This document shows, in pieces, positions 579 through 31,591 of a stretch of 34,117 nt of DNA. Below the pieces are notes generated by a model. The model was not told the origin of the DNA, did no database searches, and saw only the letters and a program-made list of their open reading frames with translations. Both the position numbers and the translations under genes were made by a program. This DNA is from Nemertoderma westbladi (Eukaryota > Animalia > Xenacoelomorpha), in contig JAUCBJ010006826.1 in NCBI GenBank assembly GCA_032718475.1, positions 1-34,117 of the forward strand. The letters run 5' to 3'. Every line of letters begins with the position of its first letter. Position 1 is the first letter of the stretch.

Positions 579-1631
579 TCAATAGCGTCGTCCTGCGCGG
601 GCATTTACTGAGCGAGAGTTTTTTATCATAGGTCTTCGAAAATTAGTAAAAGCTGGTTGATTTACTTTACTTTCATCTTCCTCATTCCCCAACTGTTTCT
701 TAATTTTATTCAATTGTTCATTAATTTTCAGTAATTTACTTTTATTTCCCAGAACCTGTCTTAATATCTCTTCTCTATTTTCTTCATTTTCTTCCATTTG
801 TTTAATAAATTTCCGCATTTGATTTTTGTTTCCTAATATTTGTCTCAATATCTCTTCTTTATTTTCATCATTCTCTTCTAAATGTTTAATAAATTTCTGT
901 AATTTAATTTTACTTCCTAGAACTTGGGTCAATGTCGCCTCTTTATTTTCTTCATTTTCCTTCAAATGTTTAATAATTTTCCGCAATTGATTCTTATTTC
1001 CAAGTAATTGCCTCTTTATTTCCTCATTATCGTCATTTTCATCCTCTTCTCCACTTTCCTGATCTTCACTTTCTTCACCCTCTTTCTGACCTTCACTTTC
1101 ATCATCCTCTTCCCCGCCTTCACTTTCTTCATCCTCTTCCTGTTCTTCACTTTCTTCATCATCTTCCTGTTCTTCACTTTCTTCATTCTCTTCCGGACCT
1201 TCGCTATCTTCACCCTCTTCTTGACCTTCACTTTCTTCATCCTCTTCCTGATCTTCACTTTCTTCGTTCTCAACCTCACTCTCTTCAACTTCATCCTGAC
1301 CCTCACTATTTTCATTCTCCATCTCATCATCCTCTTCTTCTCCATCTTTCTCACTCAAATTTTCCTCATTTTCTAGGGGTAACTGTTTTTGTATCCCTTT
1401 CAAAATATTCATAACTTTATGAAATTTACTTTCCATTGTCTGTTTTATATTTAATATATCACGCTCATCTCTCTTTTTCTTTTCATCTTCACTAAAAATA
1501 TCTTCGGATTTTTTAAATTTTTTTGGTAATGGAGCCATTAGTTTTTCCTTTCCATGTGTTTCCATATGACGAGATAAATTGTCTTGTCTCATTTCTTTAT
1601 TACAGACCAAACAAGTTTCATGTCTATGCAT
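579..1631 (-). CDS. 350-aa protein: N-terminal atypical C2H2 zinc finger, basic NLS-like patch, long Glu/Asp tract of 9-aa repeats, four 28-aa helical repeats, basic tail
   Basis: Uninterrupted ATG-initiated ORF. CLVC-x11-H-x3-H (CLVCNKEMRQDNLSRHMETH); PLPKKFKK; EEDEESEGQ-type repeats; EEILRQILGNKNQMRKFIKQMEENEENR-type repeat x4. Promoter-like motifs lie upstream. Confidence 0.75.
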   Translation of the reverse strand: MHRHETCLVCNKEMRQDNLSRHMETHGKEKLMAPLPKKFKKSEDIFSEDEKKKRDERDILNIKQTMESKFHKVMNILKGIQKQLPLENEENLSEKDGEEEDDEMENENSEGQDEVEESEVENEESEDQEEDEESEGQEEGEDSEGPEENEESEEQEDDEESEEQEEDEESEGGEEDDESEGQKEGEESEDQESGEEDENDDNEEIKRQLLGNKNQLRKIIKHLKENEENKEATLTQVLGSKIKLQKFIKHLEENDENKEEILRQILGNKNQMRKFIKQMEENEENREEILRQVLGNKSKLLKINEQLNKIKKQLGNEEDESKVNQPAFTNFRRPMIKNSRSVNARAGRRY

Positions 1632-3974: not shown

Positions 3975-6900
3975 TAGTGCCCCGAAAGTTTATTAGCAGC
4001 GGAATTATAGAGTTTTCCGATGAGATTCAGGAGATCTGCAGACAATTAGATTGGCTAGGTAAGTCTCATGAGTATCAGAATACTATGGTTATTAGAGCAG
4101 TGGCTTCTACTTTACCGAAGGGTGGAGTAGGTACACGCTGGGATAAGAAAGTGTTATATATGATGGAACAACAACGATGAGACCCTACCATGGCTGATCT
4201 CATGTCATTCTTAGATGGAGAAGTGAAATTACAGCTCCTGAAACTGTCCAGAGAGAAGACACCGGAAAACAAGGTAAGTGAAAAACCCGTCTCTAGGAGA
4301 AAGGTAACACCAGTGTGTTATACAGACGACGGCGAAAGCCAGACTTCTCAAGGAGAAGATAGCGGGAAAGACACTGATAGATCTTATTACGTAAATAAAA
4401 TGCCTAAAGATCAGGTAAGTAAATTCAAGTCTCGAACAAATGACAGGAGAGAACAGGTAAGAAAAACTCCTCCTACGTCTCCCAAGAGAATTCAGGTGAG
4501 AAATCCCGAAGAAAAAGCAAGTGTACACAATGTTACGCAAAATAAGGTGAGTAACATCAAACCGAAATGTGCGCTATGTGATGGGACCCATCGTTTGAAT
4601 ATGTGTGATGAATTCCTGAAGAAATCATTAACGGAGAGACGAGAAGTCATGTGGGATAAGCGGTTATGTTATAATTGCCTCAGACAAGGACACCAACGGC
4701 GAACCTGTTACTCTGACATAAGGTGTGCAAAGTGTGGTGCGAAACATCATATCTTGTTGCACGCTGAATTCGATCGAAATAGTCCTAATCAGGTAAGTGA
4801 TTCCGAACTACATGTCCAATTCAGTGATGTGAACGACACTGATCAATCTGAGATGGAAGGATTCTATACGGACGAGTTCTCCGACGAAAACGAATCCTGT
4901 TACATGATAAATACCGCAGTGTATCGAGCACTCACATATGAAAAAGATACAGATAGCGATTTCACTCTAGCTACTTCTGATCGACAACCATCGTGGAAAG
5001 CACCAACTTCCGATGTAGGAATCCGAGAATTTCCTGTAGTCCAGTTACGGGTCCATGGACCTCAGAAGAGCTATATAGTGAACGCCCTCCTGGACTCCGG
5101 CAGCACAGGTACATTCATTGATAAAGAACTAGCCGAAGACATATTTGCTGGACAACCCAAGTTCCGAACTAAGCTAAACATGTCCGGCATTATGCAAGTG
5201 TGGAAATCTACAGTAACAGCTGATTATTATGTAGGCGCGCTGTCCACCCCACAGGACGAACTAGGAGAACATAGCATAAGGTCAGTGAAAATGGTGGCTA
5301 TAAAGAACTTCGCTACTACTCAAGCAGACCTTTATAATTGGGACGAGGATGAGAGCATCCAACATCTTAACATACCTCGATTCCAGACTGATTATCCTGG
5401 AGTGCAAATACTCATCGGCCAAAACGCGCATGAGGCGCTGGAGACATTAGAGAAACGGCCTGCTCAACCGCAGCCACTACAGACCTATGCGGTAAGAACT
5501 AGAGTAGGTTGGTACTTTACTGGCCCTTCCCGTAGAACACTCAGAGAAAGACTACCGCAAGAGCGCATCTGCCAGGTGAGTGAATGGGAAGATGATGCTA
5601 GTGAGGGAGACGATTTAACTGAGGGAACCCCATACTCCTCAGATAACGACGACGTTCACCAGCTTTTTGATGAGGAGAATACCATCGATCTCCTTAAGGA
5701 AAACGAGGCTTGGCAAAACCAAGTGAACTTATGTCAACTTCTCTATCCATCTGAACGAGAAGCTTATAACGACGAGTTAAATGACGTCATTGAGCGTTGC
5801 AATGCCAAGACTCGAGATGAACATGCCGTACGATTCTTTACGCAAGAGGCGGTAGAGCCCAATTCCTACGATAAAGCCTTATCGGTGGAAGAGGAAAGGG
5901 CCAAGCAGATCCAAGAGACAACTACACGTTTCCTCAAAGATCAAGGTAGGTATGAAGTCGGTCTACCTTTCCGCAAGAGAGAACCGAAGTTCATCAATAA
6001 CAGACCCTTGGCGGAAAAAAGAATCGCGCAACTCCATCGACGCCTTACGGCTAATTCTTCAGCTAAAGAAATGTATCAAACACAGCTGGAGAAATTTATT
6101 AGTAAGGGATACGCGGAGAGAGTACCGGAAGAAACACCTGTGACTGAAAGAACGTATTACTTAACTCACCATTACGTTCCTAAACCCGGTAAACCACATG
6201 AAGTGAGAGTAGTGTTTGATGGCTCCGCTCTTTACATGGGTCAATCCCTTAACTCTGAATTGTTACCCGGACCCAACTTACTTCAATCTTTGTTGGGAAT
6301 TCTTTTAAGATTGAGACAATATTCGATTGCTTTCGCCTCCGATATAGAAGGCATGTTCTTACAAGTCAAGGTGTTAGATAGGGATCGAGATAGTCTACGA
6401 TTTCTGTGGTGGCCCGAAGGAGACCTCAACCAGAAACCGGTGGAGTACTGGATGACCATCCAGGCCTTTGGGATAATCTCAAGCCCTTCCAACGCCTGTT
6501 CGGTAGTGCGTACCACTGCAGAGGACAACCGAGAGGCATTCTCTAAGGAAGTGATCGACAACATCAAGAGAGACATATATATGGACGATAATCTGAAGTC
6601 CCTTCCATCAGTTGAGGAAGCCATTGAGGTCGTTAAAGGAACGGTAGAGTGCTTACAAAGAGGTGGGTTTCGATTAACGAAATTCACCAGCAACTCCCGT
6701 GAGTTTCTGGAGTCGATCCCTGCGGAAGATCGAGGGGCGAAAGATCTAGATTTGATCAAAGATGATCTGCCAGAAACCAAGACACTTGGCTTGAAATGGG
6801 ACACAGAGCGAGATATCCTGTTTTTCCAGCTAAAACAGCGAGATAATCCAATTAGAACCAAACGGATTTGCTTAAGTATACTGAGCACTTATTTCGATCC

Positions 6901-9463
6901 ATTGGGATTTATTAGCCCAGTTATATTGATTGCTCGTAGTTTGGTACAACAAATGTGGCTTGAAAACCACTCATGGGACGATCCACTTAAGGGAGAATTA
7001 TTAAAGAAGTGGATGAAATGGGAAGATTCTCTGCCGGCTATCGAGGATTTTATAATTTCCCGTTCATATTTTGGTCATGTTCTCCCTACGTATTCCTATC
7101 AACTCCATGTGTTTGGAGACGCCAGCGATATGGAAATAGGTATAGTAGCCTATCTAAGAGTGGAAACTCCGGATGGAATCAAAGTCGCCTTGGTTACTTC
7201 TAAGGCATTAATCAACAACAAGTTGAAAGTTCCTCGAGCGGAGTTAAAAGCGGCTCTATACGCTACAGCCATCGGCTGGAATGTAACAGAACAGATTGAC
7301 TATCCATTAGAGAAAACTGTCTATTGGACCGACGCTTTACTCGTGTTAGAGTATATAACCAATGAAGTCTGTCAGTTCAGCGTCTTCGTTACCAACAGAG
7401 TAGCCATCATACTTAGTCGCACGACGATGGACCAATGGAGACATTGCCCCGGAACGATTAATCCAGCAGACATCGCTTCCCGAGGAGCGACTCCAAAGGA
7501 ATTGGTAAATACTCCCGAATGGTTAGGTGGACCCGACTTTCTCTACAGAGAAGAAGAAGAATGGCCTCCCCATCTCACAACAGCAGAGATCAGACAGGCC
7601 AAGGGAGCGGAGAAAGTTAAACCCAAAACTCGAGCGAGTAAATCGAAGTTGTTTAAACCTGCGGTTGATCTATCTGTATTATTTACTTCCGGAGAGGATG
7701 CTTTGGATCAGAAACCCACCGCCTCGACTAAAGAAGTCTTGGAAATCCGTGACAAGGATTGGAAATCTGGAATACCAGATATCGCGCAAGGACTCTCACC
7801 CCTCTTGCAGAGAGCGATACGTCACTACAGTTCCTGGAATCGGCTCTGTAAAGCCGTCACCTATTTAAAACGATGTTTTCATCATCGTTACTCCGGGACA
7901 AAGACCAATAGTGATGATGCTCCATCAACATCTGCACGAGTCCATGTTGTTAAAGATCTTCCTAAATACAAGATATCCGACAGGTTTCTAAAGGAGAAGA
8001 TCAGTTACCAGGAGCATGATGAAACCAACAAACAGATGCTGAGACTCCTACAATGCTATGAGGATTCCGATAAGTATTTCCTGTTGTTAAGAAATCCGCA
8101 GATGCGCTTAAGGGATCGCTTCTCTAGTACCATGATAGATGGGTTAATACGTGTTGGAGGCAGGCTTACCAACGCCCCATTATCCTTTGACACTAAGTTT
8201 CCCATACTCATTAGAAATCTTGACATACAAATCAAGATGATTGTAGATGTTCATAGCAAACTGTATCATGCTGGCAGAGAACGAGTTCTGAGCGAAATTC
8301 GAACTCGCTTCTATTTTTATAAACCCCGTAGGGCTCTGAACCAAGTCCTTAGGAACTGTATACCCTGTAGGAAAGCATTCAGTAGGCCTTTGACACAGCG
8401 AGAGGCAGAATTACCTAGGGAAAGAGTAAGCTTCTACGAACCACCCTTTACTAATACCGGTGTGGATTTATTTGGCCCTATTGAAGTATATCGTGCCCGG
8501 ACTATAGTCAAGAGATGGTGTGTCATCTTCGTTTGTATGACTTGTAGAGCTATCCATCTCGATATGGTAAATGATCTATCCACCAACAGCTTCGTGTTGA
8601 GTCTACGATGACAGATCGCTCGTTTCGGAACCAGTAACACGATGAGATCGGATAAGGGAACGAACTTCATTGGCGCCAACAACGAAATTCAAGCTTACGT
8701 AAAGGACTGGAACAAGAGACAGGTGGACGATCAGCTAAAGATAACAGCGTCTAGCTGGACCTTCAACGCCGCCGACGCCCCTTGGTGGGGAGGAAGTTGG
8801 GAGAGATTGATTAGGAGCGTGAAGACTGCGTTCCACTTTATTGTACCTTGTCGCGCTTATCTCACCGACGAACTATTGCGGACGTTAATGGAGGAAATCG
8901 CCGCTTATCTCAACGAAAGACCGCTTATGCCAGTCTCTTCAAGTCCTGATTCCCTGGAAGCGCTAACACCCGCGCACTTTCTACTGAAGAAACCCGTAGC
9001 CATGCTCCCACGATCGGAGATCACAGACGGAGACGAGTACTGCCATCGAACCTGGCAACTTATGCAGTTGCTATCCCGTCGTTTCGCTGACCATTTCGAG
9101 AAACATTACCTGCCCACTCTACAACTTCGAACTAAGTGGTTTGCGCAGCAAGAAAACGTCAGCGCTGGAGACATGGTGCTTATTGTGGACCCCGATCTCC
9201 CACGTAAGCGATGGCAAACAGGACGTATCATCGAGACTCATATCTCGAGCGATGGTTTGGTGCGATCAGTAGAACTCGTCGTCATGCGGCGTAACTTTAA
9301 GAAACCAGGGATAGTCTTTGAGACTCAACAGCTCAACCGCCCAGTGGGTCGTTTATGTTTACTGGAAAGAGACAGAGAGCTCTCCGGAAACTATGGAAGG
9401 CAAGAAACTCTTCCCACGACCACTTCCCTAATCCAGCCGACATCTGGGGACTCCCCAACTTAA
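3975..9463 (+). pseudogene. BEL/Pao gag-pol polyprotein with two in-frame stops (4178-4180, 8609-8611)
   Basis: ORFs 3809-4180, 4190-8611 and 8642-9463 share one frame. Triple Cys/His knuckle (CALCDGTH, CYNCLRQGH, CAKCGAKHHILLH); protease LLDSGS; RT SDIEGMFLQV and YMDD; RNase H FGDAS/ELKAA/WTDA/NPADIASRG; integrase H-H-C-C, GVDLFGP, RSDKGTNF and WERLIRSVK. Confidence 0.93.
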
Positions 9464-15381: not shown

Positions 15382-16336
15382 GATACTTTTAGACACAATC
15401 TGTATGTGATACCAGCTGACCAGAGGTACCGGTACCCAGAATATTACTACAGTACGGCCTGACAGTACTGCAGTAGGTACTACACCTTCCACTGTCAGAC
15501 TATACCACTTTCCTAATGCAGGAGTTACTGGTACCTATACAGCAGTAACAATACAGCAATAGGCTACACTAGCCCGCTAGCATTCCAAGGCATTAAAATG
15601 ATTGATTGTGCCTGTCTCAAAGTCTGGCAATTTCTGAATGCAGTTCAAAACTTTTGAACGCAGGAATTTTTGTAAATAAAATATAATTGCTGCTTCTAAC
15701 AGCAGAACAGTCTGAACTCTATTTTAAATACCACTGAACCATTGCCCTGTACTCTGGGCTACAACTGTACTCCCTTCACCCAAGTCTAAACACTACATGC
15801 GCACATGCACATGCCCACTTAAGATTGTTGCTGTGATTGTGACGCTCACCACATGGCTGCATGGTGCATTGGCAGATTGGCATGGAATCTACTCCACTTC
15901 ACCCAACACCTACTAATAAACTTGCAGTTCAGCTAGGACGGTATTAGTACGTTTGAACGACACTAGCCAAACAAGCCTAAAATCAGATAAATAATGGTAC
16001 CGGTACCGGTATAGCAGTATTGTTCACCACCTTGCGGATTGCATGGGTATTATTTATTAAGTTCTTTGAAGGGAATGTATTATTTTAATCTATATTACTT
16101 ACTACTACTATTATTACTACTATTACTATTATTTACTAGCTTAATTATGTAATATTTTAGCTTAATCTATTAGTTTAATTACGATTTACTATGCGTACGT
16201 AATCTTAATTACAGTCTACCGTACATACATATTTCTAATATTATAATTAATATTTACCCCGACTGAGGGTGTATCTTATTGTAAAAAAATATTACAAGCT
16301 AATAACGCTGTTGCGATACGGTTGTTTATTTCATAT

Positions 16337-16470
16337 GTTGGCCCTGAAAAGGGCCGTTTGGGTTGGTTAAGTCAGGTCATACAGTAGATGGCCCTGAAAA
16401 GGGCCGTTTGGGTTGAAGTCAGGTCGTACAGTAGTTGGCCCTGAAAAGGGCCGTTTGGGTTGGTTAAGGT
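16337..16470 (-). terminator. Three tandem histone-mRNA-type 3' stem-loops (47-50-bp repeat)
   Basis: Minus strand CCCAAAC-GGCCCT-TTTC-AGGGCC-A at 16437-16452, 16390-16405 and 16340-16355. This matches the metazoan consensus GGCYCTTTTMAGRGCC with an A/C-rich 5' flank. AATAAA (minus) at 16325-16330. Confidence 0.85.
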
Positions 16471-16490
16471 ATAAGGTACAGTATAGACAT

Positions 16491-17065
16491 TCAGCAAGGG
16501 TAGTAATGTTTGAAAAGTGCAAGGAGATTTGAGAAAGGTCGGTCGCGATTTAAAAGTCTCCACCGAAATTCTGCCAGGTGGCCAGCAATAAGTTGCGGTG
16601 TTGTGCATTTCTTATTGCGGATGACTGACGTCTTTAAGTGGCCCCACATCGACTCTATACTCTATACGTTGAGTTGTGGGATCCATTGCCTTGCACCCCA
16701 ACAATGTCGCCTAGCAACAGATGTGCAGTACGCATTCGAACTTCGAGAGCAAACGAATACGTGATGGCAAGAATCTGCCGAACCTCGAATCGACTCTTCT
16801 CAAACCACGTTCCAGAACGTGCAGTTCGCTTGTGCTTATTAGCACCGGAGCAACGCCAAACAAGCCGCATGAATCCCCTGTCCTTCACCAGCGTAATTTT
16901 AGCTTGCGCAGTACAACCCGGAAAAGGACAAAGACGTAGGGTTGGTTGCCCATTTGATTGTAGAGTTCGGGGGAGAAGCTCCACGCTTTGAGCAAACTCA
17001 ATAGCGCGCTCCTCAGTCTCGATAAGTTTCCCAATCTCAATGAAATTTAATTCAGCCATAGTCAT
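16491..17065 (-). pseudogene. Merlin/IS1595-like transposase: N- and C-terminal parts joined, central catalytic region missing
   Basis: N-terminus AIEFAQSVELL...CPFPGC...WRC...RSGTWFEKS...QILAITYSF. After frameshifts the C-terminus reads (H)TQRIESMWGHLK...LIAGHLAEFRWR...FSNLLALFKHYYPC*, with the stop at 16491-16493. No VEIDE- or SD.W-type segments are present. Confidence 0.85.
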
Positions 17066-17066
17066 G

Positions 17067-17204
17067 ATGAGTACAGTATACAAACAGTAGGCCAGTAAGT
17101 AACAGTACAGTCAATGAGTACAGTATACAAACAGTAGGCCAGTAAGTAACAGTACAGTCAATGAGTACAGTATACAAACAGTAGGCCAGTAAGTAACAGT
17201 ACAG
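17067..17204. repeat. 47-bp tandem repeat x3 directly upstream of the transposase ATG
   Basis: ATGAGTACAGTATACAAACAGTAGGCCAGTAAGTAACAGTACAGTCA at 17067, 17114 and 17161. Confidence 0.95.
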
Positions 17205-17319
17205 CAGTAGGCCTAACAATACTGCTATACCGGTACCGGTAACAATTTTTATCAGTTTCTATCTGATTTCATGATTGTTTGGCTAGTGTCGTTCAAACGT
17301 ACTAATACCAGCTAGGACT

Positions 17320-24466: not shown

Positions 24467-27348
24467 CTAGGTGATGGCTGACCTGTCGTATTGTTCCATG
24501 AAATGTTTTTTGAATTGTGGGATGAAGTTGTTATTGCGAATTTTATCACGTACGACTTTTCTTAATCTATTCCATGTGCGACTGCAGGCGACAAAGAATG
24601 AGTATGTACCATACTTGTTATTTGTCTTTGGTATCTTGATTGTGTTTGTGCGTACATTTAGTAATTTTTTATTATTATTTAGTAATTGTGAAAGGAATGG
24701 TAGTTTTAGGTTTTGGAATGGCGCGATTTGATTTGTAACATATTTGTAGAGGTATTTGAGTGCGTGGTATTCCCGTAGTGCATTCAAGTGTGGCAATTTG
24801 GCTAATTTTCTAAGTTGAGTACCTGTCATGTCTCGTATCTTTTTGTTATAAACTAATCGCAGGGCATAGTTCTGTATTTTGTCCATTTTATATAATTTTC
24901 CTTTGTATCCGTGTTTGTCATGAAAGGGTGTAAATAGTGCACTGCAGTAATTGTGGTAAGGCATGACCAATGTCTTGTAGAGCATTAATTTTGTTGATGT
25001 GGGAAGCTGACCCTTAATTTGGCGTAACCCGGATGTTGCTGCTGACATTTTGTGTGATGTGGCATCGATTTGGTTTTCCCATGTTAGATTATTGTTGATT
25101 ATAATTCCTAAGTATGTAATTTCCGACGATTGCGCAATAATCTTATTATGTAGTGTGAGACTATAATTGTTTGTTTCTGAGGTTCTTTTTGTAGGTGATA
25201 AGAGCATAAGTTCTGTTTTGTTAGTGTTTATTTGCATGCATAGTGATCCTAATATATTTTCAATGTTTAATATTTGCTCATTAAGGAGCTTTATCGCAGT
25301 GGCTGGGCTTTTATCTGAGCAGTATACTAGTGTGTCATCAGCGTATTGTATTGTCTCAAGATTAATCTGCTCAGCAATATCATTCACGTATATTAAGAAG
25401 AATAGAGGTCCCAATTTTGTTCCCTTTGGAATGCCTCTATTACAAATGGACCACTCTGAGAATATGTTCTGGAGCTTCACGGCCTGCGGACGGTTGCTCA
25501 GGTAGCTCTTGATTAGTTTCGATGCATCAGATTGGAAACCAATTTCATCCAGCTTTGTTAATAGGATGGAGTGATGTAATGAATTGAATGCCTTGGATAG
25601 GTCTAACACACCAATTGCTACATACTTGTTATTATCTAATTCCCACCTCCATGATTCGGTTGCGTAAATGACCGCATCCATTGTACTGTATCCCTTTCTG
25701 AAACCAAATTGTTTATTTTGTAATATTTTATTATTATTTAGGTAGTTCATGATTTGTTTGTATAGAATTGTTTCAAAGATTCGTTCTAGTGTGGTGGTGA
25801 CTGATATTGGTCTGTAGTTTGTTGCGTCTTCCCTATCACCCTTTTTAAATACTGGTGTAATATATGTGGACTTTAGTTTGTCTGGGAAAATACTTTTTGT
25901 CAAACATAGATTAATGGTATGAGTAAGCGGCGTTAGTATGATAGGGGCAATAAGCTTAATTGTTTTCGGTGAAAATATGGATGGGCCATTTGGCTTATTT
26001 GTATCAATTTTTGTAATTATCTCATATATGTCTAATTTTGATATATTAGTGAAACTGAAACTAGATTTAGCTATTTTTTTTGAATTTTTATATGTCCCTC
26101 GCGATGGAAAGTTTCCCAATCCTAAGTATGCGTCGTTCAATATGTTGGCTATTGGAATTGATTCGTATATAAGTTTCTTAGTAACAGTGTTGAATAATGC
26201 AATAATCCCCCCCTCCTCTTGTTTGTTCCTATTTGTTATTTTATTTATGACGGTCCATTTCTCTTTTGCATTTTTGGCGCCATTAAATTTTGATTTCACG
26301 TATTGGTTTTTTAGGTTTTTGTTTAGCGTGTTAAATTTATTTCTTGTTAGTTTAAAATCGTTGTAATCAGATTCTTTTTTTGAATGTCTCCAAAGTATAA
26401 GTTTTTTCTGTTTTTCTAAGTTTAATGATACTATTTCGTGTGTCCACCACGGCGCCATTTTATTTTTATCTTTGGTTTTGTTGTATTTCTTTGTTATTAT
26501 GGGGATATGTTTGTTGTATAATTGTTCAATTATCTCCTCAAAATGGTTGTATGCTACATTGACATCAGTTTCTTGGTATACTTCTGTCCATATAATTTTG
26601 CTTGCATCGCTTATGAATAATTTCTCATTTAAGTTTTTGTAGTCTCGGTATGTGATATTTACTGGTTTCTTCTGTTTTTTGGTTTGTGTGGTGTTCGAAT
26701 TGGTTTTCAGCTGTGTGGTTAATACTATGATTTCGTGATCAGAGAAATCTGATGGGAATGTATTACATTCTTTGGCTATGTTTATATTTGATGTGATGAA
26801 TAGATCGATCAGAGAACTACTTTTTGGTGTATATCTTGTTGGGTGTTCAGTATTGAGTGTCATGAGGTTATATGTTGCCAGTATTTCTTGAAATTTTGTA
26901 TTTTTGTAATATGCTGATGTGTTATTTTTATTAGAGGATTTTGTAGCTTTATAATCGATATTGAAATCCCCCATAAGGAGTATGTTGGTGGATGTGTTTG
27001 TTGCATTTTCGAGCTCCTCGGTTATATCACTCCAGAAGTTATTAGCCTTTGGTGGTATGTAGAACAGTCCTACTAAAGTGCCATACGTTTCAATCCATAG
27101 TGAGTCATGTTGTTTATTCGTGCTATTGCTTGTGTTAATGTCGTTTCTTAATTTGTATTTCGTGTTACTCGGGATGTAGTACATTAGCCCTCCCCCTTTC
27201 TTCTTTTTACGATCAGACCTGACAATAGTGTAACCGGGCAGACCTATAGATTGCGATGAAATATTGCGCTTTAGCCATGTCTCTGATATGCCAATTATTG
27301 TGCTATTCCTATAATCTTGGTCGTTCTGAAGGAGATCCCTGAGATCAT
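24467..27348 (-). pseudogene. LINE ORF2, downstream part: AP endonuclease and reverse transcriptase
   Basis: The frame is open from 27348 (NDLRDLL...GISETWL...RSDR...GGGLMYY), then MGDFN, SLIDLF, SDH, PVFKKG, NYRPIS, QFGFR, LDLSKAF, GIPKGTKLGP, YADDT and YLGI. Confidence 0.95.
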
Positions 27349-27423
27349 TGTGGGGCGAGCCACGAAGTTGGCGGAGCCTTAGCGAATTGACACTGTTAGG
27401 GGGTGGGTCAATTTATGCAAATA

Positions 27424-27492
27424 GTTGTCGTCGTCGTCGTCGTCGTCGTTGTCGTCGTCGTCGTTGTCGTCGTCGTCGTTGTCGTCGTCGTT
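27424..27492. repeat. (GTC/GTT)n microsatellite
   Basis: About 23 trinucleotide units. Confidence 0.97.
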
Positions 27493-27612
27493 ACGATTTT
27501 GACATGCTAATAACTTTGTCGGATTTAAAGCTGCCAAGTTGAAAATTTGTAGGTATCAATATGAGCAAAAGTTGAGATTTTTGAGAGACTTTCAGACACC
27601 ATCAGTGCAATG

Positions 27613-28520
27613 GTCTCCCGCTAGAGGGCCACATGTCTAAACATTAAATGGCCACCCATTTCTTTGCTTTTAATCCGTTTAAGCTGAAACTTGGGAAGTA
27701 TGTACTAGACCATTAGCTGTAAATTTCAAAGGAGGCTAATCTGTCTGCAGTTCTCCAGTCTGCCGCTAGAGGGCGAAATGTCCCGAATGTGAAATTATTC
27801 TTCCATTTAGTTGTTTATGATCTGATTACGCTGAAACTTGTCATATATGTACTAGATGACATCCTGAGTCTTTGTGTGGATTGTAATCGGTCCGAAGTTT
27901 TCCAGTCTCCCGCTAGAGGGCCACATGTCTAAACATTAAATGGCCACCCATTTCTTTGCTTTTAATCCGTTTAAGCTGAAACTTGGGAAGTATGTACTAG
28001 ACCATTAGCTGTAAATTTCAAAGGAGGCTAATCTGTCTGCAGTTCTCCAGTCTGCCGCTAGAGGGCGAAATGTCCCGAATGTGAAATTATTCTTCCATTT
28101 AGTTGTTTATGATCTGATTACGCTGAAACTTGTCATATATGTACTAGAAGACATCCTAAGTCTTTGTGTGGACAGTAATCGGTCCGGAGTTTTCGAGTCT
28201 GCCGCTAGAGGGCGAAATGTAGGAAAGTGATAACCTTTGCGAATTCCTTGATCTTAATCTATTTAAGCTGAATTTTGGAATATACAGTACCGGTATGTAC
28301 TAGACCACATGCCTCGTCTTTGTGAGGAAGGTGATCGATCCGTAGTTCTTTAATATGCCGCTAGAGGGCTAAATGTATGAAAGTGAAAACCTTCCAACAT
28401 TTCGTTATTTATGATCCGTCAATCGGAAACTTGGTAGATATGTAATAGACCATAGGATGTGGCTTTGTAGGGAAACTAATCCTTCCTTCTTCAGTTACCC
28501 AGTCTCCCGCTAGAGGGTTA
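27613..28520 (+). repeat. Tandem array of ~146-bp units with a 292-bp higher-order dimer; each unit carries CCGCTAGAGGG
   Basis: Motif starts at 27618, 27763, 27910, 28055, 28202, 28358 and 28507. Confidence 0.93.
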
Positions 28521-28618
28521 ACGTTTTCCGGGAAAATCTTCTCCTATGTTTTTATAATCCTTTCGAGTTGATACTTAGCATTAACTCATTTCACGTGCTG
28601 CGCGAAGGCCCCACTTCG

Positions 28619-29780
28619 TGTAGTGCTTTGTATGGCTTCTGGCATTTATGTGAATTAATTTTATATGGTCTGTATTGTTGTTCAAATATTGTGGTATATG
28701 GTACATATTCGTCCACAGGGGACCTTGTGGTATTAGTGGGCCTGGATTTGGGTGCACATTGCCAGACATTAGAATGGCCTGTCGAATTGTGAGACTTATT
28801 ATAATTAATATATCTATGCCTGATGTGAGGTATAATTGTGTGATATAGATAAGGATTTTAATAGCTGTTATATAATGTTTGTAATTCGTATTATACCACA
28901 ATTTGAATAATCCCTTTGTGACATGTTTTGTATATGTATTAGGATTTGTCTGTATTTTGTTGTTGTTTAATGTCGTCCCCCAAGCACTATTAAATGTAAT
29001 TAATATTACCAAAGATTCGTATAATCTGAGTTTTTTTTTAATTGTTATTAACTTGATGAAAATGGACAGTGATATCAGTATTAAAAATATTGCTATGGTT
29101 AGAGTAGATATATATATGTCTTTTGTTGGTGACATGTTTGAATTTAATGATGCTGCTATAAGTATTGAGTAGACGGTGGAAAATGTGAAATATGGCAACA
29201 GTGTAGTTTTTTGGTTTCTTATATGAAATTTCTGCCGTTTATGTCTTTTACTAAGTCTTTTGTCAGTGCAATACATTCTATTTAGCTTTAATTTCATACA
29301 CACTATATATTTGCAGAGGGACTCATATATTCCTCTAGGCCTGGCCTTATATATCAAAATTGGGCAAACTCTGATTACACTGCAATATAGTTTTGCACAG
29401 CAAATTATCAATATGGTTGCACGGATAAAACATAGGTAAAATTTACAATAAGACGTGGCGTTCTGCCCGTCGAACTTTGGCCAAAATGCTAAATTATAGA
29501 GTACTATGTTAAGTATCGGTATGTAATTAAAAGTAAACACGTCCATGGCTGATGCTACTTGTGATGATATCCAAGTAAATATAAGTGTGCTGAAATAATA
29601 TACACAATTAATTGCACTACTGGTACTGTATCGGTCACATGGTATGAGTGTGGTCGAACCTATAGCTATAGCTACGTACAATATAATTTTAAAATATCCT
29701 ATAGTCGATAATATACTCGATATTAAAAAGTTTTGAGTCCAAGATATAAGTTTCAGACTATTTAAAATGTTTGTATACAC
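28619..29780 (-). pseudogene. LINE ORF2, upstream part: hydrophobic leader, 2A-like motif, start of APE
   Basis: Same reading frame as the downstream part once the insertion is removed. AILMSGNVHPNPGP, then KLIHINARS (first APE motif). The start codon is uncertain (the ORF track uses GTG). Confidence 0.85.
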
Positions 29781-29971
29781 GATACATATAATTACAATTA
29801 TATATAATCGACGAAATAATAGTTTCCATGGATATGTGCTTACGAGAATATGGTATAATATTGATAATAATACGATATAGTTTAGTAATATTAATTCTAC
29901 GAATTTAATTTATTGGGAAATAAAAAAAAAGAAAAGGAAGTTTCCATTGTTACTGTACCATAGCAGTTAAT

Positions 29972-31591
29972 TTACGAATTATCTGGATTGATTACTTTCA
30001 GTAGAGAAATAAGGGCCGTAATGAGACCTTTGCCATTGTTAACCTGGGAGACTGCAGTTGGTACTGGTACTGGTGAGGCTGAGGAGTGAGTGGGCGTGGG
30101 TGATTGAGTGGTGGGCGGGGGAAGTGGTGGGGTTGGTAGAAGGACTGGACGGGAATATATTGGATTGAACGGGGGACCCACGGGAGTTGGCAGTAGTGCT
30201 GGGCGGGACATGGAGGGAGTAATAAAACATGAGTCAGGGAGAGGAGACGGTGGATTAGAAAGGGGAAGAGGAAGTAATGGCTGTCTACCGGTGGTAACTG
30301 CAGCGAAGGATCGTGTTTGAGAGACTTTACTGTGTGGCAATATGTTTAAAGGGGGACTTGGTTGCGGTTGCTTATTATAGAATAGATGGTGTTTTATTGA
30401 AGCTGCTAGTTGCGGGACATATCTAGCTGATACGTGCTTGTTATCATATAGTTGGGACTTGTTTATCATTGAGTGGTTAGCGTATATTATACCGTGTTTG
30501 TTGCATAATCGTGATATATTACTGTTGATTCTTTGAACTACTTTATCTTTCCTCGCCAATATGGAACCCACAACGATCCGAATCCCTCTCCACTCTTTCT
30601 TAGCGATCTCTATCACCTTTTCAAAGTTGGATATTATCTTTTGGGATCCTCCTTTGTGGTCTAGGTCATTTGTACCGCAGTGTATGTACAGGCGCTTGGT
30701 ATTCGGATATTTGTTAACCGCGGAGTTGATATTCACAACGAGGTGGTCGGTTGTTGGTGTGAAAGTCATTCGTGTATTGTAATCGATCTTTCGCTGGTCA
30801 ATAAAACGTTTATTACTGTCCATGAACATTAGCGTATTCGCTCGGTCATTGCGTTTCTTTGAACTGCTAGATAGGCCTATCTCGATGTAGGAGTTTCTTT
30901 TTTCATCTGTGTCTATCGTGATTGGATCCGTACTAACCTGGCTAACGTCGAGCATAGTTGTAGGAATATGCCTTTCTGTTGGTGTTCGACCATCCGGCAT
31001 TAGACCTACCGATACCGGTATGACCGTTGACGATAGGACTGAATTGACTGACTCCATGTTGAACGATTCGAACATTTCACACGTGGTGAAGCTATCGGGT
31101 TCGTATATTAGGTCTATGTTAGTTGCGATCTGACTGTTGATTTCAGCCGGTGTTGGGTTGGTTTCAGCCCGGGATGGGTTGATTTCAGCAGAGTCTGTAT
31201 TGGGTTCCGCTACCGCGACTAGTATTCCAGTCGCTATTTGCGGTACCGGTACCTGAATGGTGGGTTGGGTGTCTGGTGTATCGGTACGGGTTTCATTAAT
31301 TTCGATTAGCAACGGGTTGCGGTTTATAACCACTGTGTCATCTTGATCCACGTTTACAGTCCCGGCCCATGAAGGGGGCTCGGGCCCGGGCCCGGTACTA
31401 CTGGTAGTAGGCCTACCGCTACCGTATCGGCATTCCCGGATGGCGATCGGGAGAGCCGCACACAGACCACAGATATACGGTCGATTGTGGATCGTGCTGT
31501 ATATCTCTCGTGTCGTTAGAATTTCCGTCCACACACTAATACACACCGTGCATTTGACTCTGATCTTTATCGTTTCATCGTAATCCATCAT
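29972..31591 (-). CDS. LINE ORF1p with N-terminal Cys cluster, SGNH-type esterase domain and Pro-rich tail
   Basis: CTVC...YICGLC; FMDSN (GDS-like), IHCGTND and DNKH (DxxH). Esterase-bearing ORF1s are established in CR1/L2-group LINEs. Confidence 0.85.
   Translation of the reverse strand: MMDYDETIKIRVKCTVCISVWTEILTTREIYSTIHNRPYICGLCAALPIAIRECRYGSGRPTTSSTGPGPEPPSWAGTVNVDQDDTVVINRNPLLIEINETRTDTPDTQPTIQVPVPQIATGILVAVAEPNTDSAEINPSRAETNPTPAEINSQIATNIDLIYEPDSFTTCEMFESFNMESVNSVLSSTVIPVSVGLMPDGRTPTERHIPTTMLDVSQVSTDPITIDTDEKRNSYIEIGLSSSSKKRNDRANTLMFMDSNKRFIDQRKIDYNTRMTFTPTTDHLVVNINSAVNKYPNTKRLYIHCGTNDLDHKGGSQKIISNFEKVIEIAKKEWRGIRIVVGSILARKDKVVQRINSNISRLCNKHGIIYANHSMINKSQLYDNKHVSARYVPQLAASIKHHLFYNKQPQPSPPLNILPHSKVSQTRSFAAVTTGRQPLLPLPLSNPPSPLPDSCFITPSMSRPALLPTPVGPPFNPIYSRPVLLPTPPLPPPTTQSPTPTHSSASPVPVPTAVSQVNNGKGLITALISLLKVINPDNS

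Follow-up and report, generated by a model that had tools for sequence, protein, structure and literature searches.

Histone-type stem-loops behind the transposase stop codon of Merlin transposons: candidate SLBP and U7 snRNP substrates

Histone mRNA 3' ends and Merlin transposons

The 3' ends of metazoan replication-dependent histone mRNAs consist of a stem-loop (Rfam RF00032, Histone3) with a 6-bp stem, a 4-nt U-rich loop and an A/C-rich 5' flank, followed by an ACC 3' flank and a purine-rich downstream element (HDE) about 15 nt downstream, all placed soon past the stop codon. They are processed by SLBP, the U7 snRNP and CPSF73, and the anatomy of this substrate and the mechanism are described in PMC7026596. 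Within the histone-binding region of U7, the UCUUU box is reported to be universally conserved (PMC5054213). Histone mRNAs have been called the only known non-polyadenylated cellular mRNAs (PMC4604434). A dual 3' end is found on H2A.X (H2AFX), where a stem-loop has a poly(A) signal downstream.

Merlin elements are DNA transposons of the IS1595 (IS1016-related) type, reportedly as set out by Feschotte in 2004. Each has a single ORF of ~300 aa with a DDE_Tnp_IS1595 domain, as well as internal tandem repeats. By definition, their terminal inverted repeats (TIRs) measure 24-462 bp and have a terminal GG, and their target site duplication (TSD) has a size of 8 or 9 bp (PMC8101967).

A link between transposition and the cell cycle is known from IS10, through Dam hemimethylation, and from the P element, which acts near origins (both as cited in PMC3687335). 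Synchrony with S phase is, according to the same source, an expected advantage for cut-and-paste elements. The proposal made here for Merlins predicts the same aim, a tie between transposition and replication. IS10 and the P element, however, act through DNA state or target choice, whereas the Merlin coupling would be post-transcriptional and use the histone mRNA pathway.

Both parts, the Merlin transposon and the histone-type 3' end, are thus known, and their combination appears undescribed. We found no report of a histone-type 3' end on a Merlin in the openly accessible literature searched. In the main text of Lopes et al. 2021 (PMC8101967), the words 'histone', 'hairpin' and 'UTR' have no occurrences.

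The Merlin element of Nemertoderma westbladi and its hairpins

The window, as we call the whole 34,117-bp stretch analysed (contig JAUCBJ010006826.1 of Nemertoderma westbladi), contains a Merlin element of 1,370 bp at 15940-17309. Its GG-ended TIRs are perfect over 35 bp and imperfect to ~85 bp. The 3' TIR begins with GG and lies at 15940-16024 (imperfect to ~16024), and the 5' TIR lies at 17215-17309 (17275-17309 perfect). The element is enclosed by two identical 9-bp TSD copies, at 15931-15939 and 17310-17318. Both TIRs and TSD therefore agree with the Merlin definition. Three hairpin-free 47-bp tandem repeats (17067-17207, minus strand) adjoin the ATG upstream and have the heptamer TACTGTA in common with the repeat units at the 3' end.

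An ATG at 17065 on the minus strand opens a 136-aa frame. Its codons 1-129 (16679-17065) correspond to the N-terminal part of a Merlin transposase, with a zinc-ribbon-like part and a WFEKS motif. This remnant aligned with an alignment of 11 animal Merlin proteins (A2) by hhalign with a probability of 95.8 and an E value of 8e-9. A HMMER (phmmer) search over 1.84 billion proteins gave 10 hits, of which three were Merlins (P0002, P0005 and P0010; the first two carry Pfam DDE_Tnp_IS1595). The other seven were repetitive proteins and were rejected as relatives. A word-indexed protein search with the same remnant found nothing, and neither window remnant had a direct Pfam match. The C-terminal 53 codons, with the TGA at 16491-16493, occupy 16491-16652 on the minus strand, in a different frame from the 136-aa ATG frame. 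They also aligned with A2 (hhalign probability 88.9, E 2.4e-6), and their best tblastn match among the fetched loci was a hairpin-bearing Merlin, L039.

Between the two remnants, alignment A1 revealed that the DDE core is missing. The region at 16653-16678 (minus strand) holds the joint of the internal deletion, at ~16678, and a frame-shifting 7-bp duplication at 16653-16666, as seen in A1 and in Logan contigs. Unlike an autonomous Merlin, the window copy thus has no intact ORF with a DDE triad; because the core is absent and the frame is shifted, it is a non-autonomous deletion derivative of a Merlin family. Longer copies exist in the genome of the same species, since Logan contigs from three DNA runs part from the window sequence at 16678 and there go on with codons resembling, by eye, the conserved VDWYNF.RE motif. 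The 'Merlin transposase gene' of the initial annotation therefore holds as to its homology but not as to its intactness.

The TIR areas at 15940-16064 and 17208-17309 had deep coverage in run X4, with loose ends into unrelated sequence, and the ORF had almost none; this pattern suggests MITE families with TIRs common to the window element, with Logan depth figures not taken as copy numbers. To the left of the element, 15420-15560 has GGTACCGGTACC and TACAG-type motifs in common with the Merlin subterminal region; this short stretch may represent a related element that has decayed.

Behind the transposase stop codon, on the transposase strand and inside the TIRs, GGCCCTTTTCAGGGCC occurs three times in identical form, each time preceded by CCCAAAC and followed by A. 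Their minus-strand coordinates are 16437-16452, 16390-16405 and 16340-16355, at 38, 85 and 135 nt past the stop. They belong to a repeat unit of 47-50 bp, with start-to-start spacings of 47 and 50. These positions agree with the initial annotation, as does the AATAAA hexamer at 16325-16330, 9 nt past the last stem. The hexamer is part of GAAATAAA (16325-16332, minus strand), the sole purine-rich block near the last stem, at +8..+15. Among 100 shuffles of the window, none contained a match to GGCCCTTTTCAGGGCC, even with up to two mismatches, and none matched the degenerate histone consensus.

The three hairpins folded separately in both MFE and centroid structures. Histone3 was the top Rfam family for all of them, at 31.3 (the last hairpin), 29.4 and 26.5 bits and E values of 1e-6 to 7e-5. 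The hairpins fit the histone consensus exactly, yet these scores stay below the RF00032 gathering score of 34. Other Rfam hits of the window (mir-16, psbNH, Atu_C4) were far below their own cut-offs and were rejected. As in histone ends, the 5' flank is A-rich (CCCAAAC) and the first stem is close to the TGA. Unlike in histone ends, the 3' flanks are AAC, ATC and AAC instead of ACC, and at +15..+21, the position of the HDE, the three hairpins have 2, 2 and 4 purines out of 7.

The absence of a histone coding sequence nearby, which the initial annotation had noted, was upheld: no histone Pfam family was found in 96 stop-to-stop frames (45+ aa, 11.4-22.8 kb) around the element or in the nine long ORFs of the window.

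In the same species, short Logan contigs that do not span the DDE core showed single-hairpin variants, in which one and the same stop is followed by at least three distinct spacers. No RNA run was among the sequencing runs listed for the element. Contigs joined 16367 to 16481 via 21 other letters (three runs), 16370 to 16481 (two runs), or 16376 to 16482 via 22 other letters (two runs), and in one contig the last hairpin ran directly into the stop and the C-terminal codons. Because these variants carry one hairpin each, with differing spacers, we read the triplet of the window as a derived tandem duplication. Ordinary turnover of Merlin repeats may account for the triplication, as suggested by the triple 47-bp repeat of the 5' end, which shares TACTGTA with the 3' units.

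A different multi-copy locus (runs X2 and X4; a 669-nt record) has the same 35 nt as window positions 16332-16366, including the last hairpin and its 3' flank. The outer flanks of this locus were identical in two studies. It could be a histone gene, reflecting host histone practice, or another element.

Further content of the window included a BEL/Pao LTR retrotransposon polyprotein at 4190-9463 (plus strand; Peptidase_A17, integrase zinc domain), with two ORFs split at ~8611-8642. A non-LTR retrotransposon lies at 24467-31591 (minus strand), with an endonuclease-reverse transcriptase ORF of 905 aa and, upstream, a 539-aa ORF with a weak GDSL/SGNH esterase match. A 350-aa ORF at 579-1631 (minus strand), for which Pfam gave no convincing family, has a C2H2-like zinc finger at its N terminus, together with a long acidic repeat and a helical, repeated tail.

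Hairpin-bearing Merlins beyond the species

JGI metagenome contigs were scanned for a histone hairpin 165-225 nt downstream of DNA coding for T[NQ]x[IV]ExxW, the motif that holds the last catalytic residue of the Merlin transposase. The hairpin pattern required only the hairpin and one A, and tolerated mismatches at two stem positions. The scan gave 49 loci, a count that gives no share of Merlins, because motif and hairpin were demanded together. Directly upstream of the hairpin, 48 of them had a same-strand Merlin HMM match (E<0.01), including two weak matches (L012 and L047) whose C-terminal reading agrees with the others. At 80% DNA identity the 48 loci formed 25 families, although many are near-identical re-assemblies and may stem from few host species. 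The chance of a hairpin per Merlin locus was ~5e-7 with uniform bases; shuffle controls ignore relatedness. None of 80 IS1595-like loci from prokaryote genomes had the hairpin.

The remaining locus, L029, had no HMM match and read as a different gene; it was rejected as a Merlin and left out of the Merlin counts, but it was nonetheless included in the identity profile and the purine background. At L029:3-470, the end of an ORF that looks neither Merlin nor histone has two GGCCCTTTTCAGGGCC hairpins behind it, spaced by 49 nt and with window-like flanks. Pfam gave only a weak hint (TDBD, E 0.07), and the locus is a candidate for a further non-histone client.

Seven loci (L004, L005, L006, L020, L039, L040 and L041) have uninterrupted ORFs of 293-355 aa with the hairpin past the stop. 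Absence of the hairpin from autonomous relatives, which the initial annotation had envisaged as counter-evidence, was thus not what we found. Identity among the seven transposases is 33-71%, and to the window remnant it is 18-28%. Two of them (L006 and L041) score above the Pfam cut-off for DDE_Tnp_IS1595 and carry a TIR at either end. TIRs along with 8-bp TSDs were also found for L026, L027 and L038, whose hairpin sits 190-300 nt inward from the 3' end. The RF00032 gathering score was reached by 32 of the 48 Merlin loci. The distance from stop to stem was 18-69 nt in 13 families, a range partly set by the scan pattern. Tandem hairpins recurred in five of the 25 families. In L040, hairpin and purine block are found at 2588 and again 243 nt downstream at 2831, within a longer repeat, as two complete signals.

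Several features that the scan pattern did not demand were kept in the related Merlins. Behind the stem, 23 of 25 families have ACC, and A is found at -3 in 24 of 25. The downstream element proposed as a check in the initial annotation has a counterpart in the relatives, an HDE-like purine block. At +15..+21, 6 or 7 of the 7 positions are purines in 18/24 families, compared with 36/585 background heptamers further downstream (6%). RRRGR, the wobble-tolerant complement of the U7 UCUUU box (judged by the conserved box), occurs at +12..+25 in 19/24 families and in 23/422 control windows. Counting the AATAAA hexamer only, nine of the ten loci with a TIR pair (E<1e-5) lack it on the way from the stop region to the 3' TIR. 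The 3' TIR of L026 itself ends in AATAAA, and L008 has AATAAA at +43.

At the level of sequence, hairpin, histone-like flanks and purine block stand out as a conserved island, inside the TIRs of complete elements, from a 3' UTR that is unrelated elsewhere. Mean pairwise identity was 0.67 at -4..-1, 0.93 in the stem and 0.70 at +2..+8, and it was 0.26-0.28 at -40..-11 and +22..+40. All 156 stem cells (156/156) were paired. Uncompensated variation of the stems, which the initial annotation had said would count against its idea, was not what we saw: changes were either compensated or G-U, with G-U pairs in 2/26 rows and a U-A/C-G double change at one stem pair in 8/26 rows. On the tree, this compensatory switch needs three changes, at least two of them forced by starred branches. 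Selection for a histone-type 3' end on Merlins is well supported by these comparisons, because flanks, purine block and compensatory change were kept while the surrounding UTR was at chance identity.

The hairpin is probably patchy and not universal among Merlins, since 15 of the 30 Merlin proteins that came from JGI gave no matching hairpin locus despite having the motif and a fitting tail length; this is a protein-level view, and seven of the 15 are on contigs <1.2 kb. In a FastTree tree of 110 proteins, the hairpin-bearing rows fell in at least four separate places among 91 Merlins that were unscored for the hairpin. A more careful tree needed two changes relative to the bacterial outgroup and was also compatible with one origin. 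The history of the hairpin may thus be one old origin with losses, or several acquisitions.

Viral contigs had neither an exact match to the window hairpin nor Merlin relatives. One viral contig found with a loose pattern (L001) was rejected as a chance match. A 41.6-kb viral contig (L131:1501-1518) has an exact histone hairpin after a non-histone frame, followed by a T run and no purine block.

In a supplementary record (S2) of PMC8101967, what looks by eye like the end of an H1 gene has the hairpin of the window and a near-same 5' flank, then ACCAC and a purine run. We therefore judge the window hairpin to match a real invertebrate histone-type end, as far as this one H1-like record goes. 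Three Ptychodera records in the same supplement (LD373974.1, LD354680.1 and LD356481.1) contain, at a distance of ~1 kb from Merlin hits, a repeated sequence that bears the hairpin together with ACCAC and a purine run. The reading frames of this repeat are unlike a histone end, and it is possibly another hairpin-bearing element.

Proposed SLBP and U7 route and rival readings

Many animal Merlins have a histone-type stem-loop past the stop, in most of those sampled with a purine block, and we consider it likely that through this signal SLBP and the U7 snRNP take on the transposase mRNA as a client. By analogy with the known histone pathway, SLBP would bind the Merlin hairpin, U7 would pair with the purine block, and CPSF73 would cut between the two. 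The product would be a non-polyadenylated transposase mRNA that follows the histone schedule in its synthesis, translation and decay, in S phase and, through maternal storage, in cleavage divisions. Maternal storage via oocyte SLBP (PMC6239174) would put transposase into early embryos. Cut-and-paste elements would gain copies only when the element moves behind the fork or when the gap is repaired from the sister; a transposase limited to S phase would for this reason raise copy number. A move from replicated to unreplicated DNA would be one such route. The use of SLBP and U7 and the S-phase timing are what we infer from the conserved signal. That animal Merlins have made non-polyadenylated transposase mRNA via SLBP and U7 for very long, or repeatedly, as a general strategy of synchronisation with S phase and early divisions, is a broader claim, towards which we lean with some reserve.

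The upstream gene differs from that of histone mRNAs: a histone there, a DDE transposase within TIRs here, and Merlin hairpins are often in tandem. The window family differs further in lacking ACC and the +15 purine block. There, a non-autonomous deletion derivative would have had its hairpin triplicated by tandem duplication. Its hairpins likely keep SLBP binding, and the neighbouring AATAAA, not U7, may set the end of its mRNA. For this family a U7 step is doubtful, given the missing ACC flank and the low purine counts (2, 2 and 4 of 7) at +15..+21. For the SLBP/U7 idea of the initial annotation, the relatives, with their intact ORFs, paired stems and purine block, thus spoke in favour, while the window family, with its doubtful U7 step and no working transposase encoded, did not. 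The window family and L008 resemble H2A.X in having a stem-loop with a poly(A) signal downstream. H2A.X, however, is a histone that keeps the HDE, and the window AATAAA is only 9 nt past the stem and known from sequence alone.

The same features of the window, no ACC, no purine block at +15..+21 and AATAAA 9 nt past the last stem, would be expected if SLBP docked at the hairpin of a polyadenylated transposase mRNA, for translation, maternal storage or stability, and the hairpin were not a signal for U7 cleavage and S-phase decay. Extra tandem hairpins would add binding sites, not cleavage signals, and the polyadenylated H2AFX isoform is reported to be bound by SLBP (PMC4604434). Docking is most plausible for the window's own family. 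Docking alone leaves unexplained the purine block at a fixed distance in 18/24 families and the absence of AATAAA before the TIR in 9/10 loci, and we judge it unlikely overall. A role at the DNA level, as a subterminal transposase-binding or cruciform repeat with an incidental histone likeness, would fit the three 47-50-bp repeats at both ends of the window element with TACTGTA in common, and could well account for the triplication; Merlins often have internal tandem repeats (PMC8101967). The hairpin is, however, found at the 3' end only and in a single orientation, tolerates G-U pairs (2/26 rows), has strand-specific RNA-processing flanks and is common to families with unrelated TIRs. Of all readings considered, we give this one the least credence.

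DNA transposons capture host fragments, and the hairpins could be pieces of histone 3' UTRs that were picked up once or repeatedly and carried without function. Possible donors exist, such as the H1-like gene end in the PMC8101967 supplement with the same hairpin and near-same 5' flank, and in the window's species the multi-copy locus with the same 35 nt includes hairpin and 3' flank. A neutral passenger would decay like the spacer, but the neighbouring UTR is at chance identity and the compensatory change was repeated. Place and orientation are also the same across transposases down to 33% identity, and no histone coding remnant was found in the 96 frames near the window hairpins. Passive capture is largely refuted by the conservation island and is, in our view, very improbable.

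We therefore return to the reading of Merlin transposase mRNAs as likely clients of SLBP and U7. If it is true, RNA-seq with poly(A) selection overlooks such mRNAs, and it would be wrong to set Rfam Histone3 matches aside as pseudogene debris where no histone gene is present. The old idea of replication-tied cut-and-paste transposition becomes directly testable, with one 16-nt element to mutate. In the histone mRNA field, the stem-loop/U7 pathway is taken to belong to replication-dependent histones only; the conserved signal in at least 25 Merlin families would, if the reading is true, end that exclusivity and provide the first class of non-histone protein-coding clients.
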